This document shows, piece after piece, positions 1 to 60,403 of a stretch of DNA of 64,000 nucleotides (the stretch's first letter is position 1; each line of letters starts with the position of its first letter). The position numbers and the translations under genes are program-made. The notes under the pieces were generated by a model. That model saw only the letters and a list, made by a program, of their open reading frames with translations, was not told where the DNA came from and did not search any database. The stretch spans positions 974-64,973 of the IMG/VR virus record IMGVR_UViG_2786546475_000019; one strand, given 5' to 3'. Source of the stretch: a virus.

Positions 1-2
1 AA

Positions 3-87
3 GGACCATGGACCAAGGACAAAATGATAAATCTGGAACTGGACCCCGGACCCGGACAGGCCGACCAAGGACCGTGGACCGTGGACC
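3..87 (+). repeat. array of seven same-orientation GGACC pentamers, including GGACCGT x3 at 69-89
   Basis: GGACC starts at 3,10,41,48,69,76,83; non-coding window edge. Confidence 0.8.
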
Positions 88-131
88 ATGTTGACAGCAC
101 CTAACATGTTCGCCATCTTTGGTCGGCCTGT

Positions 132-188
132 CCGCCCCAGCAAAAAGCCGGTTGATGTTTTGCCGCCCCAGGTGAAGGCCGGTTGTTG
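132..188 (+). repeat. two imperfect ~26-nt direct repeats (CCGCCCCAG...GCCGGTTG), period 31 nt
   Basis: CCGCCCCAG at 132 and 163; GCCGGTTG follows each. Confidence 0.6.
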
Positions 189-214
189 GGAGGTCGATCC
201 AGGTTATCATGTGG

Positions 215-262
215 GTGTTCAATTTTGCAACACCGACAAAAAAGTGTTGCAAAATTGAACAC
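215..262. repeat. perfect 19-bp inverted repeat GTGTTCAATTTTGCAACAC / GTGTTGCAAAATTGAACAC with 10-nt spacer
   Basis: arms 215-233 and 244-262 are exact reverse complements. Confidence 0.9.
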
Positions 263-357
263 CCCCCTGAAAGTGGGGTGTGCGGTATCGCACACCCCCT
301 GAAAGTGGGGTGTGCGATACCGCACGTGCGGAACCGCACAGTGAGCGGTATCGCTCA
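260..357. repeat. ~32-nt tandem duplication containing a perfect 18-bp inverted repeat (281-298 / 307-324, 8-nt loop), plus palindromes GTGCGG-AA-CCGCAC and TGAGCG-GTAT-CGCTCA
   Basis: TGCGGTATCGCACACCCC versus GGGGTGTGCGATACCGCA; GCGGTATCGC or its complement at 282, 314 and 345 (spacing 32 and 31). Confidence 0.9.
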
Positions 358-685
358 GCTCAACTGCCCTATATTAGATACTTCGGTGTAGTCAATTTGA
401 CTACATGATAGATCGGCGATTTTGCCTAAATCCAAGGCATCGCTGCCCACGGTATAGGCACAAGGATATTAGACGGTAAAAACCGACATATTGTGAGCTT
501 TCCAGATCGCTTTCCCGAAAACTAAGTGTCCAGTAACTATTTCAAAGTATTTTCACGCGGGGAAAACCGATGAATGGGAGCCGCAGACAGCGTGCCTAAA
601 ATTCAGGCAGGTATAATTGGGGCGTTCCAAGCGAACACGGGCAAGCCAAGCCAAATTCGGCACGCTTGTCAAGTTCCACGGGACT

Positions 686-2333: not shown

Positions 2334-2430
2334 AACCCGGTAGGGGTTTATCACAAGTCGTTGCACCCAGGAACAATACCGGGGTCCGTCGCCCTTAACG
2401 CGACGACACAAGCATGATATTTTGTGCCAC

Positions 2431-2612: not shown

Positions 2613-2676
2613 TTCTGAATTTTTTCAGAATTAGGGGCAATCCGTCCTGCCCTCATTCGTATCTATAGGGAAGTCC
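2613..2676 (+). promoter_or_regulatory. promoter-like module A1: palindrome TTCTGAA-N4-TTCAGAA, then TTTTCA-N6-GGGGCAATCC-N11-CATTCGTATCTATAGGGAAGTCC
   Basis: one of three copies with identical geometry (others at 59266-59322 + and 58653-58708 -); 12 nt before ATG 2688. Confidence 0.6.
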
Positions 2677-12961: not shown

Positions 12962-13218
12962 ATCCAGTAGCTCACACCCTTCGATTGATATCAGTGACAG
13001 CAACAGCCGAAACTCTTAAGAGCCAAAACGATTTGTTCCACGGAGCTTCGGAAATTCGAGTGACCCCTGCTGCTGATATTACAATGAAGGATTTGCAGAC
13101 GGGAGCTTCTGTTACATTAACTTCCGGCCAAACACATTCCCTACCTGCCGCTAACGTTGCGACAGAATTTCAATTCACCACAAGTGGAGCCGAAGTGTTC
13201 CAAGTTTACTCCGCATGA
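12952..13218 (+). CDS. hypothetical protein
   Basis: 88-aa ORF immediately upstream of the terminase. Confidence 0.45.
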   Translation: MSMNPVAHTLRLISVTATAETLKSQNDLFHGASEIRVTPAADITMKDLQTGASVTLTSGQTHSLPAANVATEFQFTTSGAEVFQVYSA

Positions 13219-14894
13219 TAACTGAACTGTTTGACCATTTAGCCGAAAGCTTAACCCACAGCACAATCACAAATTGTGCTCAGTGGGCGTTAGAGCGTAG
13301 GGTTATGGGACGACCGTTCGAGGGCCCATGGAATTTTAAATTATTTCCGTGGTTATACACTCCGCACGTTTCCAACCATCCATTTCGGTTGGCATTGAAA
13401 GGTGCTCAATTAGGGTTTACAGAGTGGGCAATTAACGAAGCTTTTTACGCTATTGATCATAAGCGTTCAAATGTTTTATATTGTCTGCCTACAAAGGGCA
13501 ACGCGGGTGACTTTTCAACCACCCGCTTCAACCCTGCCCTAGCCCTTAGCCCCTATATCGCGAACTTGTTCTCTGGTGCAGATAATGTATCATTGAAGAC
13601 GGCAGGTTCTCGGTCACTGTATATTAGGGGTTCAAAGGCTAGAGCAGACTTGAAGTCTTTGCCAATTACTGTTTTGATACTTGACGAAATTGATGAAATG
13701 CCTAAAGAGTCAATCTCTCTAGCTCATCATCGTCTTGATGGACAAGCCGTAGGTTCAACTTCATTGCTTGAATTATCAACTCCTACTCTACCTGATATGG
13801 GGATTGACGCTGAGTACAAATTATCAAACCAGATGATTTACGTATTCCAGTGCCCAGGATGTAGCAAGTATATTGACTTGCAATACCCTAGGAATTTTAA
13901 GCTAACTGCTACGCGAATGAACGATCCTGACATTGAAAAGAGTTATTTCTTTTGTCACGAGTGTGATTACGTAATAGACCACGAAGCCAAACCAGAGATT
14001 TTTAAATGCAAGGAAATGGGCGGCACGGGTCACTACAGACCGCAAGTAAAATATGCTGACCGAGAAGGGTACTATGTAAATCAAATGTACTCCTCGGCCA
14101 AAGGCGGAACGCCAATTGAGTGGGCTAAAGCCGTAATACTTGCAGAAACAAATCCGTCAAAAGAACAAGAGCTTTGGAACTCTAAAGTTGGTAAAGGCCA
14201 TGCAACAGAGAACGCAAAGCTAGAAGAAGGAGTCTTAGAGCAGCATAAGCGAAACTACACTATTGCCGACTACGAACTCCATGATAATCGTATTAGAACA
14301 ATTGGGTGTGATGTTGGAGCAGTTTGCGATTTAGTGTGCTTAGAGTGGACGTGGGAGTCTGATCTTGGCCTGCCTAATGATAGATACCGTCCTCGACTGG
14401 TAGGTGAATTATCATTGCCCCGATCTTCGGAAGATGCCCGAGCCATTTTGGACTACTTCCGAAAGATGAACGCTCATATGTTTGTTATGGATTCCGAACC
14501 TGAAAGTCGTTTTGCTCGACAAGTCATCAATTTGCTAGGCGACTATGGGTTCATGTGTGATTATGGGAAAGGATACAAAGCAGGACAAGTTAATGTTAAA
14601 GAAGAAGATGGCTTTATCACTGTAAATCGAACTACATGGTTGGATATAACTATGTCTCGATTCACAGCTGCTAACAAAGACGGAACAGATTTACCTAGCG
14701 ACATAAGCGAACGATTCCTTCAACATATGACAGCCCCTGCTAGATATTACAAAGATGATGCAAATGGCGACCCCATAGCTATTTACAAAAATGAAAAAGC
14801 GGATCACTTGTTTCATGCGTGGACCTACGCTGAGATAGGATTGCCTCTTTACTTCCTAACAGCCGAAGGCGAAGATATCGATGTTATCTTTTAG
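13215..14894 (+). CDS. terL: terminase large subunit, GpA-like
   Basis: LKGAQLGFTEWAINEAFYAIDH...LYCLPTKGNAGDFSTTRFNPAL and zinc-ribbon FQCPGCSKYIDL resemble the lambda GpA family; followed by a portal-sized ORF. Confidence 0.75.
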   Translation: MITELFDHLAESLTHSTITNCAQWALERRVMGRPFEGPWNFKLFPWLYTPHVSNHPFRLALKGAQLGFTEWAINEAFYAIDHKRSNVLYCLPTKGNAGDFSTTRFNPALALSPYIANLFSGADNVSLKTAGSRSLYIRGSKARADLKSLPITVLILDEIDEMPKESISLAHHRLDGQAVGSTSLLELSTPTLPDMGIDAEYKLSNQMIYVFQCPGCSKYIDLQYPRNFKLTATRMNDPDIEKSYFFCHECDYVIDHEAKPEIFKCKEMGGTGHYRPQVKYADREGYYVNQMYSSAKGGTPIEWAKAVILAETNPSKEQELWNSKVGKGHATENAKLEEGVLEQHKRNYTIADYELHDNRIRTIGCDVGAVCDLVCLEWTWESDLGLPNDRYRPRLVGELSLPRSSEDARAILDYFRKMNAHMFVMDSEPESRFARQVINLLGDYGFMCDYGKGYKAGQVNVKEEDGFITVNRTTWLDITMSRFTAANKDGTDLPSDISERFLQHMTAPARYYKDDANGDPIAIYKNEKADHLFHAWTYAEIGLPLYFLTAEGEDIDVIF

Positions 14895-37585: not shown

Positions 37586-38236
37586 TTAAACCATATTCAA
37601 AGTAATTGGAGGTTTGTCGCTTTTTAAAAGTTTAGCTAGCTTTTCTAACGCTCGCTTTTCAAGTTGACGAACTCTTTCTCGCGAGATATTAAGAGTTTCC
37701 CCAATAGTCTTAAGAGGAATCCCTTGGGCTCGTAGCCTCAAAACTAAAGCATCTCGACTATTTAACTCAAGAAAAGCTTTTTCTAGAGCAATAAGCTCCT
37801 CTTGCCATTCTATCAAATCCCTATCAAGACATTCTAAAGGTGTAACAGGGTTATTAAATAGCCCGTGTAAGGTTTGAAACATTGGAGCACGAGCTATAGC
37901 AGCTTTAGCTCTGTCAAGATGAGCTGGATTTGGAGATACTTTAATTAACTCCACCTTGGTTTTCATGTAAGTTATCATTCGTTGTTTCACCCACGGAGTG
38001 GCGTAAGTTGAAAACTGATAACCTTTACTAGGGTCAAATTTTTTGACCGCCTGACATAACCCACTCATTCCTTCTTGAATTAAATCGTCTAAATCAAGCT
38101 TAGAATTTTTCTTGGCAAAAGACACCGCTATCTTGATAACCAATCCTTGATTATCTAACACTAACCGATTGAGTGCTTCATCAGCTTCCTTTCTAGCAGA
38201 ATGATATTTTTGTAATAACTCGTCATTAGTATCCAC
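37586..38236 (-). CDS. sigma-70 family RNA polymerase sigma factor (group-3-like)
   Basis: region 2 DDLIQEGMSGLCQAVKKFDPSKGYQFSTYATPWVKQRM; region 4.2 TIGETLNISRERVRQLEKRALEKL. Confidence 0.85.
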   Translation of the reverse strand: MDTNDELLQKYHSARKEADEALNRLVLDNQGLVIKIAVSFAKKNSKLDLDDLIQEGMSGLCQAVKKFDPSKGYQFSTYATPWVKQRMITYMKTKVELIKVSPNPAHLDRAKAAIARAPMFQTLHGLFNNPVTPLECLDRDLIEWQEELIALEKAFLELNSRDALVLRLRAQGIPLKTIGETLNISRERVRQLEKRALEKLAKLLKSDKPPITLNMV

Positions 38237-51284: not shown

Positions 51285-51629
51285 TCAGTCTCCTCTTATC
51301 AATTGATAAATTTCTTTGTAAGTATGTACTGGCATATTATACTTGTCCGCTATATCCTGCCAGTTCTCTTCCCACCAGCTAAAAGAATGACACTGACCCC
51401 CAACTTTCAACACTCCAAAGTCTTGGTTGACTTCTACTTTGCGGCCGTGTAAAATTCCGAGTGTTATCAGTTTGCCGTAGCCGTAGCCGTAGCCGTAGCC
51501 GTAGCCGTCGCCGTCGCCGTAGCCGTCGCCGTAGCCGTAGCCGTAGCCGTAGCCGTCGCCGTAGCCGTAGCCGGTCCCGTAGCCGGTCCCGTAGCCGGTC
51601 CCGTAGCCGTCGCCGTGGTTACTTAACAT
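51285..51629 (-). CDS. protein with an N-terminal Gly-Tyr(-Asp/Thr) repeat region
   Basis: GDGYGTGYGTGYGTGYGYGDGYGYGYGYGDGYGDGDGYGYGYGYGYG followed by a ~60-aa non-repetitive domain. Confidence 0.55.
   Translation of the reverse strand: MLSNHGDGYGTGYGTGYGTGYGYGDGYGYGYGYGDGYGDGDGYGYGYGYGYGKLITLGILHGRKVEVNQDFGVLKVGGQCHSFSWWEENWQDIADKYNMPVHTYKEIYQLIRGD
51474..51616. repeat. hexanucleotide microsatellite (GCCGTA/GCCGTC/GCCGGTCCCGTA variants) encoding the GY repeats
   Basis: about 143 nt of near-perfect 6-nt periodicity. Confidence 0.9.
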
Positions 51630-58652: not shown

Positions 58653-58708
58653 GACTTCACCCTATAGCTACGAGTGGCGGGATATCGGATTGCCCCACAA
58701 AATGAAAA
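58653..58708 (-). promoter_or_regulatory. promoter-like module A3
   Basis: - strand TTTTCA-TTTTGT-GGGGCAATCC-GATATCCCGCC-ACTCGTAGCTATAGGGTGAAGTC, about 70 nt upstream of ATG 58586. Confidence 0.6.
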
Positions 58709-58932: not shown

Positions 58933-59017
58933 GAGCCAAATTTTACGTTAAATTGGTATGTTTCGACGGGAATTGATACCGTCTCACTGCTCTCCTCCCG
59001 AACCTTGCATCTTGGCT

Positions 59018-59058
59018 CACGCTACACGTATCACGCTACACGTATCACGCTACACGTA
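59018..59058 (+). repeat. tandem 14-mer CACGCTACACGTAT x2.9
   Basis: units at 59018, 59032 and 59046; followed by ACGT/CGCGTG-rich repeats up to 59225. Confidence 0.9.
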
Positions 59059-59226: not shown

Positions 59227-59359
59227 AAATGATATGATACATGGTTTTCAAAATACTTGAAAATATTTTCAAAATACGGGGCAATCCTGCCCGGTTTTAT
59301 TCGTAGCTATAGGGGGAAAGTAGACTGTTTTACTTTCCAAAACGACTATCATATCATTT
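59227..59359. promoter_or_regulatory. operator pair AAATGATATGATA (59227-59239) / TATCATATCATTT (59347-59359) bracketing module A2
   Basis: exact 13-mers identical to the 54169/54272 pair. Confidence 0.7.
59257..59322 (+). promoter_or_regulatory. promoter-like module A2: palindrome TTGAAAATATTTTCAA, then TTTTCA-N6-GGGGCAATCC-N11-TATTCGTAGCTATAGGGGGAAAGT
   Basis: same 29-nt spacing from GGGG to CTATAGGG as A1 and A3. Confidence 0.6.
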
Positions 59360-59374
59360 GTGGAGAAGTCCAAC

Positions 59375-60403
59375 ATGGCAGAAGAAACTCAAGCTACCGA
59401 AACTATCATTTCAGAAGGATTGACTCAAGAGCAGTTCGAATCCGTGGGTAGCGACATTCAGGCGATTTCTATCAATGAGATCACCGTCCCTGAAGTTAAG
59501 CTTCGTGGCGTGAACACCGAAGGGGAAGAATACTTGGAACTCAAGGATTCTATCAAATCGCAAGGACTGTTGCAGAACATTACTGTACGTCCCGTCGAAA
59601 TCGCTGGCAAGCAAGGCTACGAACTTATCACTGGGCTCCAGCGATATACTGCTTGCAAGGAACTCGGACATGAGACTATCGACGCTCGTGTGAAAGAAAT
59701 GTCCGAGCAAGAAGCTTGGTTGTGGATGATCCACGAAAACACTCAACGTGTTACGCAAAAAGCGTCAGATATCACCAAGCTCTTGAAGCGTCTGATCGCC
59801 AAAGATCCAACGATGTCTATTCCACGACTCGCGAAGCTTTTGTCGAAGTCCGTGCCCCAAGTACAGAACTATCTGGCACTTGATAAACTGACCGACGAGG
59901 CAAAGGAATTGGTCGATGATGAAACCATCGGTTTGACCAACGCAGTTGCTCTCGCCAAGCTCCCACCTGAGGAGCAGGAAGACTTGCTTGCTGACGCGTC
60001 AACAATGACCGTTGCTGAATTTGTTCCACTTGTAAACGAACGAAAAGAAAAGGTTGATCAAGCCAATCGTGAAGCTCGTGAACAGGAAAAGAACACGTTT
60101 TCTCCGAAACCAAAAGCTCGCAAGAAAGACGATCTCGTCACCGAGCTTGGAATTATCATGGGCACGGAGACTGGCACTTCGCTTCTTATGGAGTGCTTGA
60201 ACGGTCAGGATGTTGATACTTCCAACCAGAATGTCAAGGCAGTTATCACTCAGACAATGGAGTGGGTCCTGAACCTTGATCCAGCGTCCGTCGACGCTCA
60301 ACGAGCGAAATGGGAAGACGCCAAAAAGAAGCGGGAAGAACGAGAAAAAGCGAAAGCTGCCGCTCGTGCCGAACGTGAAAAGGCGAAAGCCCTGGAAATC
60401 TAA
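59375..60403 (+). CDS. ParB-like N-terminal domain protein
   Basis: LKDSIKSQGLLQNITVRPV...YELITGLQRYTACKELGHETIDARV; start set to ATG 59375 (GGAG RBS), track start 59360 is GTG; Lys/Glu/Ala-rich C-terminus. Confidence 0.75.
   Translation: MAEETQATETIISEGLTQEQFESVGSDIQAISINEITVPEVKLRGVNTEGEEYLELKDSIKSQGLLQNITVRPVEIAGKQGYELITGLQRYTACKELGHETIDARVKEMSEQEAWLWMIHENTQRVTQKASDITKLLKRLIAKDPTMSIPRLAKLLSKSVPQVQNYLALDKLTDEAKELVDDETIGLTNAVALAKLPPEEQEDLLADASTMTVAEFVPLVNERKEKVDQANREAREQEKNTFSPKPKARKKDDLVTELGIIMGTETGTSLLMECLNGQDVDTSNQNVKAVITQTMEWVLNLDPASVDAQRAKWEDAKKKREEREKAKAAARAEREKAKALEI

Follow-up and report, generated by a model that had tools for sequence, protein, structure and literature searches.

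A single-copy array of GTGCG-N4-CGCAC dyads in the largest non-coding region of a deep-ocean siphophage, a candidate part of its replication origin or origin control

In this work, we analysed 64,000 nt (positions 974 to 64,973; the window) of the IMG/VR virus record IMGVR_UViG_2786546475_000019, which belongs to a tailed phage, an uncultured marine (deep-ocean) siphophage of about 72 kb, and focused on an element of stacked inverted repeats at window positions 205-360. The element is non-coding and not a known RNA, and its unit of repetition is a 14-bp dyad, GTGCG-N4-CGCAC, of which four copies lie within 80 nt; with up to two mismatches allowed, the dyad is confined to this one cluster in the 64-kb window. 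The way in which the dyads are conserved among relatives points to a single-copy array of protein-binding sites in double-stranded DNA, which we tentatively regard as most likely part of a replication origin or of its control. The parts of the element are as follows, in window coordinates (L numbers denote other sequences compared with the window).

207-270, no strand: long inverted repeat IR1, read from the sequence; 100% identical, spacer included, in L095.
263-326, no strand: two 32-nt tandem units, each CCCCCTGAAAGTGGGGT followed by a dyad and an A; the P1-spacer-P2 layout is also found in L106.
280-293, no strand: dyad P1, GTGCGGTATCGCAC; identical in L105 and L106.
312-325, no strand: dyad P2, GTGCGATACCGCAC; L095, L106 and L109 carry GTGCGGGATCGCAC at this position.
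326-339, no strand: dyad P3, GTGCGGAACCGCAC; unchanged in L095, L106 and L109, with the centre flipped to GGTTCC in L001.
343-356, no strand: dyad P4, GAGCGGTATCGCTC; L106 carries GTGCGATCCCGCAC twice at this end of the array.
358-410, no strand: segment specific to the window type of the array; relatives have a fifth dyad here, and the window has a 19-bp palindrome, TGTAGTCAATTTGACTACA (387-405).

IR1 has perfect 21-bp arms at 213-233/244-264 (GGGTGTTCAATTTTGCAACAC and GTGTTGCAAAATTGAACACCC) around a 10-nt A-rich spacer (CGACAAAAAA), and arms widened to 27 nt (207-233/244-270) are still 93% identical. A preliminary description of the element, made from the sequence, had given these arms as 19 bp (215-233/244-262), which are indeed perfectly complementary within the longer match, and a second inverted repeat as 18 bp (281-298/307-324), which proved to be perfect over 19 bp (280-298/307-325) around an 8-nt spacer. 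The tandem duplication of about 32 nt that it reported is likewise present, at 263-293/295-325, with 29 of 31 positions identical and a Tandem Repeats Finder score of 112. Within the dyad, the two tandem units differ by its two outer central bases alone, so that the dyad of the second unit is the reverse complement of that of the first; since P2 is thus the exact reverse complement of P1 and both have the flanks GGGGTGT/ACACCCC, the stretch 280-298/307-325 reads as a perfect 19-bp inverted repeat. P1 and its flanks form a 24-bp palindrome, GGGGTGTGCGGTATCGCACACCCC, at 275-298. Directly next to P2 comes P3, about which the array is symmetrical and around which the dyads lie in mixed orientation: the centres of P2 and P4 are reverse complements of each other, and each P4 half-site carries the same symmetrical change (T>A, A>T). 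The very long perfect hairpins arise because neighbouring dyads are in opposite orientation.

The core GCGGTATCGC or its complement occurs at 282, 314 and 345, as first described, and its repetition is real, but the dyad is present in four copies and not three. With the copy at 326-339 overlooked, a spacing of about 31 nt, or three helical turns, had been read in place of the real centre-to-centre distances of 32, 14 and 17 nt; close relatives have 17 nt, and the periodicity of about 31 nt is not kept. The mutually exclusive folds that had been proposed do exist as alternative pairings (ACACCCC/GGGGTGT between units, GTGTGCG/CGCACAC within a unit), but any tandem palindrome array has them inevitably, and they do not speak for a switch.

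The array comes in two types. In the window type (the window and L105), the order is P1 -32- P2 -14- P3 -17- P4, followed by a 50-nt unique segment; L105 has the same sequence as the window over the element and 979 nt more upstream, window position 1 being its position 980. The L095 type (L095, L106 and L109, and partly L001 and L097) reads P1 (GGTATC) -32- P2 (GGGATC) -17- P3 (GGAACC) -17- P4 (GATCCC) -17- P5 (GATCCC). Between types, window positions 25-262, including all of IR1, differ at two positions and by one 8-nt indel (about 99% identity), and positions 410-860 are about 93-95% identical, which leaves the array as a local hotspot of rearrangement between flanks that are 93-99% identical. 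Nevertheless, the half-sites GTGCG and CGCAC are near-invariant over nine distinct dyad copies (from the window, L105, L095, L106, L109, L001 and L097), the only departures being two single changes, in contigs of low coverage, and the double change of P4, which is symmetrical. What varies is the central 4 nt (GTAT, ATAC, GAAC, GGAT, ATCC or GTTC), the copy number (four or five), the spacing (14, 17 or 32 nt) and the orientation. IR1 and the dyad half-sites are therefore kept in relatives of about 95% identity, the conservation for which the preliminary description had suggested a search.

Dyad symmetry about P3 is retained in both types, with P2/P4 centres of ATAC/GTAT in the window and GGAT/ATCC in L106, and in the L095 type it gives a perfect 25-nt inverted repeat. 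The long P1:P2 hairpin, on the other hand, is broken there by three mismatches, and another dyad pair makes a long hairpin instead; the 19-bp hairpin singled out at first is not itself a conserved feature. In L001, the centre of P3 is flipped from AA to TT. From these patterns, the array seems to undergo hairpin-templated correction or inversion. Taken as a whole, this conservation is how a dyad bound by a protein dimer, with its central bases uncontacted, would behave, and it is unlike an RNA helix, in which pairs covary and the sequence drifts.

The repeats are exceptional within the genome and exceed by far what chance would produce. All of the top three short-range inverted repeats of the whole 64 kb fall within the first 800 nt, and approximately no matches to the 22-nt unit or to the IR1 arm are expected in shuffled sequences. 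That the element has no credible open reading frame (ORF), as noted at the outset, is borne out by indels of 2, 3, 4, 8 and 12 nt between relatives, which disrupt both candidate ORFs. The region gave no match in INPHARED by megablast or blastn, exact-pattern searches of IMG/VR and JGI with the conserved flank and IR1 gave 0 matches, and a literature search on the dyad sequence found nothing relevant.

The element sits in a non-coding region of 1.6-1.9 kb, the largest of the phage, between the end of a rightward operon (ParB-like protein, SNF2 helicase, ParB-like protein, DNA polymerase A, VRR-NUC nuclease, ligase, and proteins of 290 and 185 aa) and an orphan gene of 453 aa (856-2217). The region also contains about ten copies of a 30-nt iteron (CCGCCCCAAG..CAGGTGAT), which are tandem within the 3' end of the 185-aa gene, with three further downstream and two diverged ones at window 132-193, and an AT-rich stretch of 100 nt at 21% GC (L105 300-400), about 900 nt upstream of the array, whose immediate flanks have 42-62% GC. 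It is because the array shares this region with the iterons and the AT-rich stretch that we consider an origin.

We scanned IMG/VR for two adjacent GTGCG-N4-CGCAC sites and recovered arrays of 2-8 copies in roughly twelve phage families that are unrelated. In L080 and L092, five copies of the dyad lie within a lambda O-like initiator gene, in the classical origin layout. An all-against-all BLASTP comparison of the ORFs of 15 array-bearing families found no protein in common with the window (E < 1e-4), and as the arrays were picked by pattern, they are analogues and not homologues. By analogy, such elements can serve as origins and probably as packaging sites.

On the basis of the conservation pattern, the uniqueness of the cluster, its place after the replication genes, the accompanying iterons and AT-rich stretch, and the O-gene analogue in L080 and L092, we infer protein binding and a link to replication. 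The element would act as double-stranded DNA, its four GTGCG-N4-CGCAC sites (five in relatives) being bound side by side by a dimeric sequence-specific DNA-binding protein that builds a nucleoprotein complex; IR1, next to the array, would be either another binding site or a structure prone to form hairpins. In this reading, the array would form part of the lytic replication origin or control region, and the perfection of the long hairpins would probably stem from hairpin-templated repair and not from selection as RNA structure. Of the two possibilities raised in the preliminary description, a cis-acting DNA site or a structured non-coding RNA, the first is thus better supported, by the half-site conservation, the uniqueness and the non-coding context, and the second found no support.

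In its working, the element is most similar to origin iterons with dyad symmetry or to arrays of operators. In the lambda origin, four dyad-symmetric binding sites for the O protein adjoin an AT-rich region. Shared traits are four or five close repeats with internal dyad symmetry (four here, five in L106), conserved half-sites with varying spacing, other repeats and an AT-rich stretch somewhere in the same region, and a genome-unique cluster, and L080 and L092 use this very dyad in the lambda manner, inside an O-like gene. The array nevertheless differs from lambda in being intergenic, with no O-like or other initiator found nearby, in its 14-bp sites (19 bp in lambda), in the distance of about 900 nt to the AT-rich stretch and in its mixed dyad orientation. 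Repeat-rich non-coding origins beside the replication module are also known from siphophages, such as the Sfi21-type phages of Streptococcus thermophilus and the lactococcal phages c2 and sk1. They share with our region a long non-coding stretch beside replication genes that is full of direct and inverted repeats, but have no sequence or protein homology with this element, which is here a candidate origin only. In this light, the array is a typical case, in an unstudied lineage, of something well known from phages, iterated binding sites between genes, and is not surprising.

Several observations weigh against an origin at the array. The region has no DnaA boxes, and the AT-rich stretch, although in the same non-coding region, lies about 900 nt from the dyads. 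No initiator or other candidate binding protein was found, the flanking genes (those of the orphan 453-aa, 185-aa and 290-aa proteins, and small ORFs) having no family match, and the AlphaFold model of the orphan protein is unusable, with a mean confidence score (pLDDT) of 41; an initiator too divergent to be detected may lie beside the array. The array is known in two sequence types only, which makes the comparative evidence thin, and the IMG/VR arrays were found by the pattern itself, in several contexts, so that they speak for plausibility and not for homology. Lastly, the divergent primase/ParB intergenic region at 58.6-59.4 kb has tandem repeats of its own, two promoter-like elements and the cumulative GC-skew minimum, and is an equally good origin candidate.

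The surroundings of the element bear on the alternatives and comprise the following features.

1-193, no strand: upstream context, comprising GGACC heptad repeats (1-90), an inverted repeat (53-71/116-134) whose arms reach 40 nt in L095, and a pair of diverged iterons (CCGCCCCAG...) at 132-193.
410-855, + strand: conserved leader of the orphan gene; it contains two TGCCTAAA..AGGCA dyads (423-439 and 593-609), a perfect TATAAT (612-617) and three hairpins (686-707, 739-793 and 793-820), the last of which is terminator-like.
856-2217, + strand: orphan 453-aa gene, with GGACC clusters on either side and a strong terminator-like hairpin at 2232-2256.

A role in transcriptional control is possible but doubtful. 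The dyads would then be operators of a phage repressor or activator (a Cro/CI-like, ribbon-helix-helix (RHH) or similar dimer), controlling the orphan gene or insulating the late genes from read-through of the replication operon. Abutting dyads of 14-17 bp with free central bases resemble the classical operators of lambda and 434, and the array shares with lambda OR/OL and the 434 operators the number of three to five abutting dyads and their weakly constrained centres. Further, it lies upstream of an apparently independent unit made up of TATAAT at 612-617, a hairpin leader, the orphan gene and the terminator-like site at 2232-2256, and the phage encodes a sigma-70-family factor of its own (37586-38236). 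However, the best -10 element lies 255-330 nt downstream of the array, and the start codon is some 500 nt away; unlike the lambda and 434 operators, the array has neither a recognisable overlapping promoter nor an adjacent repressor gene; no helix-turn-helix (HTH) or RHH protein was found beside it. The dyad is also absent from three promoter-like elements described below and from all other intergenic regions, and it forms one cluster in place of two operator regions. A cluster that is unique in 64 kb fits a cis site present once per genome, not a global operator.

We regard a packaging or terminus signal as unlikely; in that case, the terminase would recognise the dyads and G/C runs (as cosB- or pac-like sites), or these would lie at the border of a terminal repeat, and the hairpins would take part in concatemer processing. 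The phage has a gpA-type large terminase, and its heptad repeats and C5/G5 hairpin recall the terminal repeat region of T7; both lambda cosB R sites and T7-type terminal repeats combine short repeated motifs with G/C-run hairpins at a non-coding junction. Among the IMG/VR arrays, those of families L029 and L079 lie about 0.9 kb upstream of terS-terL-portal, that of L090 about 90 nt upstream of terS and that of L086 beside terL; in many arrays of the scan, as in the window, a G or C run comes next, and such dyads are found together with the homologous terS genes of L029, L079 and L077, in analogy to terminase recognition repeats. In the window, by contrast, 12 kb separate the array from the terminase genes (13215-14894), which no intergenic gap precedes, defined ends of the kind known from lambda cosB and T7 termini could not be detected, and no protein is common to the window and the IMG/VR array phages.

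The behaviour of metagenome assemblies at the array also argues against a packaging terminus. Exact-protein look-ups recovered the same or about 95%-identical phages in Tara Oceans assemblies, including contigs of 72,328 nt (k127_854715) and 71,449 nt, and at least seven contigs of independent assemblies (L001, L002, L097, L106, L108, L109 and L110) begin inside or at the array, where a Tara scaffold also has a gap of Ns flanked by a G-run. The start points of the array-broken contigs are seven different nucleotides spread over about 100 nt, and not one fixed end. Elsewhere, long contigs stop at the tandem 30-nt iterons, at the heptad array or (by estimate) near the (GCCGTA)n repeat at about 51.5 kb, and one scaffold ends in coding sequence. 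We therefore rejected a physical genome end at the array as the explanation of the breaks; the scattered starts and the ends at other repeats indicate assembly failure on repeats in a circular assembly graph.

Two further observations concern these sequences. Between IR1 and the first dyad, the relatives of the L095 type carry at least 9-15 consecutive Gs (L095 7568-7600; L106 1-10), at which both assemblies stop, with an N-gap in the L095 scaffold and the contig start in L106; this G-run may be a real homopolymer or a sequencing artefact at a hairpin. In addition, a 72,280-nt contig of this phage (carrying MBF84023.1 and MBF84108.1) is filed under an 'Acidobacteria bacterium' metagenome-assembled genome (MAG), and appears to be an entire phage genome that was wrongly binned with a bacterium.

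A structured RNA is improbable. The hairpins, on a read-through or local transcript, would be processing sites of the RNase III type, 3'-end stabilisers, pause sites or a small non-coding RNA. Structure prediction, proposed as a check in the preliminary description, did give a fold far stronger than that of shuffled sequences, extremely stable on either strand: for 166 nt, z = -11.4 (RNA, + strand), -12.7 (RNA, - strand) and -12.9 (DNA), with 0 of 200 shuffles as good. The flanking genes are all on the + strand, which makes read-through possible, the symmetrical double change in P4 keeps the pairing, and a neighbouring hairpin outside the element (793-820) has real compensatory changes. Yet the folding signal is fully strand-symmetric, the stem sequences are alike in all copies, with no covariation, and the long P1:P2 hairpin is not kept in relatives, which use another dyad pair. 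No terminator-like site was found in 205-360 on either strand, the stems being followed by CCCCCCTGAAAG and ACATGATAACC with no U-tract. Rfam 15 gave 0 matches at the gathering score, and a search at E <= 1 brought up generic miRNA-precursor hairpin models below threshold (18-29 bits against cut-offs of 50-535); a tRNA/tmRNA search found nothing meaningful.

The chance that the array is a centromere, a parS-type site for one of the two ParB-like proteins of the phage, is smaller still. Both proteins have a ParB_N domain, one of them with an HTH_ParB domain as well (59360-60403) and the other encoded from about 63400, and centromeres, F sopC and plasmid parS clusters among them, typically consist of palindromic sites in clusters. 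The dyad, however, is unlike canonical parS and has other half-sites; with up to three mismatches, canonical parS (TGTTNCACGTGAAACA) has 5 matches in the window against 2.7 expected, none of them in the region, and no canonical site is present anywhere in the window. Central bases are free in the array, whereas they are contacted and conserved in known parS, the gene content looks lytic, and neither a ParA partner nor lysogeny or plasmid-maintenance genes were found among the roughly 60 proteins scanned, a set that does not include every ORF.

With slight probability, the array could be a palindromic module that extrudes hairpins or cruciforms and inverts ('flip-flop'), in which the DNA structure itself would be functional as a structure-specific origin or concatemer-processing site. 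If so, the dyads and G/C runs of about ten unrelated phage lineages would represent a widespread, undescribed class of cis-elements with a common, possibly host-encoded reader. Equally slight is the probability of no function at all, the array being a hypermutable quasi-palindrome, tolerated in non-coding DNA, in which template switching brings about expansion, inversion and perfect repeats. Although copy number, spacing and orientation shift quickly among phages of about 95% identity, the P3 centre flips between AA and TT, and the long arms are as perfect as hairpin-templated correction would make them, the half-sites and IR1 stay constant while neighbouring sequence diverges and the array is present in every relative that covers the region.

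Two other candidates were rejected. A CRISPR array does not fit two 32-nt units only, next to dyads that abut at 14-17 nt without spacers. Nor does a protelomerase target, as the arms are split by non-palindromic spacers of 8-10 nt (a non-palindromic AA centre in L095); no such enzyme was found among the proteins scanned, in a scan that was incomplete.

Beyond the array, the phage carries genes for a P22-coat-like capsid protein, a portal, a tape-measure protein and the large terminase, for a primase-helicase, the SNF2 helicase, a Dda-like helicase and the two ParB-like proteins, and for a thymidylate synthase, a D12 methyltransferase and the sigma-70-family factor (- strand). It has no close cultured relatives, its large terminase and major capsid protein being at most 24-30% identical to those of cultured phages. 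The orphan protein is more isolated still: among billions of proteins it has one homologue at 96% identity and one at 27% over the full alignment (31% over the matched stretch), with 0 relatives in IMG/VR and no match in Pfam, PHROG or the PDB. A ParB-like 'GxRR' motif suspected by eye in this protein could not be substantiated. Its (EA)n tail is encoded by 7.5 copies of GAAGCG at 2161-2205 and is absent from P0001, the 96%-identical homologue.

The leader of the orphan gene has features of its own. Both copies of the small dyad TGCCTAAA-N-AGGCA are kept in relatives, and the one at 593-609 directly precedes the perfect TATAAT at 612-617, an arrangement that could be an operator/promoter pair for the orphan gene. 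The terminator-like hairpin at 793-820, 36 nt before the start codon, shows compensatory changes (GGCTTGAAC/GTTCAAGCC vs GGCTGGGTC/GATCCAGCC), with one G-U pair on the + strand, and is probably a functional RNA hairpin in the leader.

Short repeats are spread around the orphan gene and elsewhere. The heptad unit in the non-coding region is GGACCAT, and repeats of the GGACC type (GGACCNNGGACC; 30 matches vs 1.9 expected) flank the orphan gene on both sides (window 1-90 and 2431-2577), in clusters whose copy number differs between strains; L105 has one at 925-1000. In L074, a distant relative with synteny, another short repeat (CCAAGAGCC, about eight copies, 2520-2640) occupies this place downstream of the orphan homologue, so that the orphan protein and a downstream repeat array may go together. 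The iteron (CCGCCCCAAGCGGAAGCAGGTGATGCCGAG) has 1.5 tandem copies in the 185-aa gene of L112 (17270-17320), 2.5 in that of L095 (6412-6472) and at least 5.5 in that of L105 (1-170), and related copies are dispersed in the non-coding region, for example at L105 518-676. Further tandem repeats are a 20-nt unit in three copies after the orphan gene (AATATCAACTAGCTGCACGC; 2273-2334), a 14-nt unit in three copies in the primase/ParB intergenic region (TCACGCTACACGTA; 59017-59058) and 24 copies of GCCGTA at 51474-51616.

A promoter-like element of about 40 nt, GGGGCAATCC-N10-12-A(T/C)TCGTA(G/T)CTATAGGG, is present in three copies, at 2634-2670 (+), 58660-58695 (-) and 59280-59314 (+), each 20-70 nt ahead of a gene start (gene 2688, the primase and a ParB-like gene) and none in the region of the array. 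Its spacing, AAT-N16-CGTA, resembles promoters of extracytoplasmic function (ECF)-type sigma factors, and the phage has its sigma-70-family gene. On a larger scale, TGATA/TATCA is about fourfold over-represented across the genome (7.75 per kb vs 1.95 expected; TGATAA 213 vs 44, z = 25). It is found on both strands, in genes as well as in non-coding DNA, and in all frames except those in which it would give a stop. Its density is 9.0 per kb in the close relative L111, and 1-2.8 per kb in unrelated phages and in the distant relative L074. ATGATAA motifs near the array, which at first resembled local regulatory sites, are part of this genome-wide excess. Among the IMG/VR families, L029 (1640-1860) and L079 (1970-2450) have in common a conserved sequence, CACCCCCC..CACCCCCCTGCTATTAGGGA...GTAGGGGTTAATG, that follows their dyad arrays; TACTGGG(G)TAGGGGTT also occurs as a motif in the second non-coding region of the window (2335-2350 and 2540-2556), which could be a coincidence or a common host-factor site.

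The array and the neighbouring tandem repeats repeatedly break metagenome assemblies, which explains the fragmented and gapped contigs of this phage and the contig of about 72 kb in the 'Acidobacteria bacterium' MAG. More broadly, in a lineage of deep-ocean phages without cultured relatives, the array shows where the principal non-coding control region lies; should the dyads be sites of an origin or of packaging, they would offer an experimental handle on how this lineage replicates or packages its genome.

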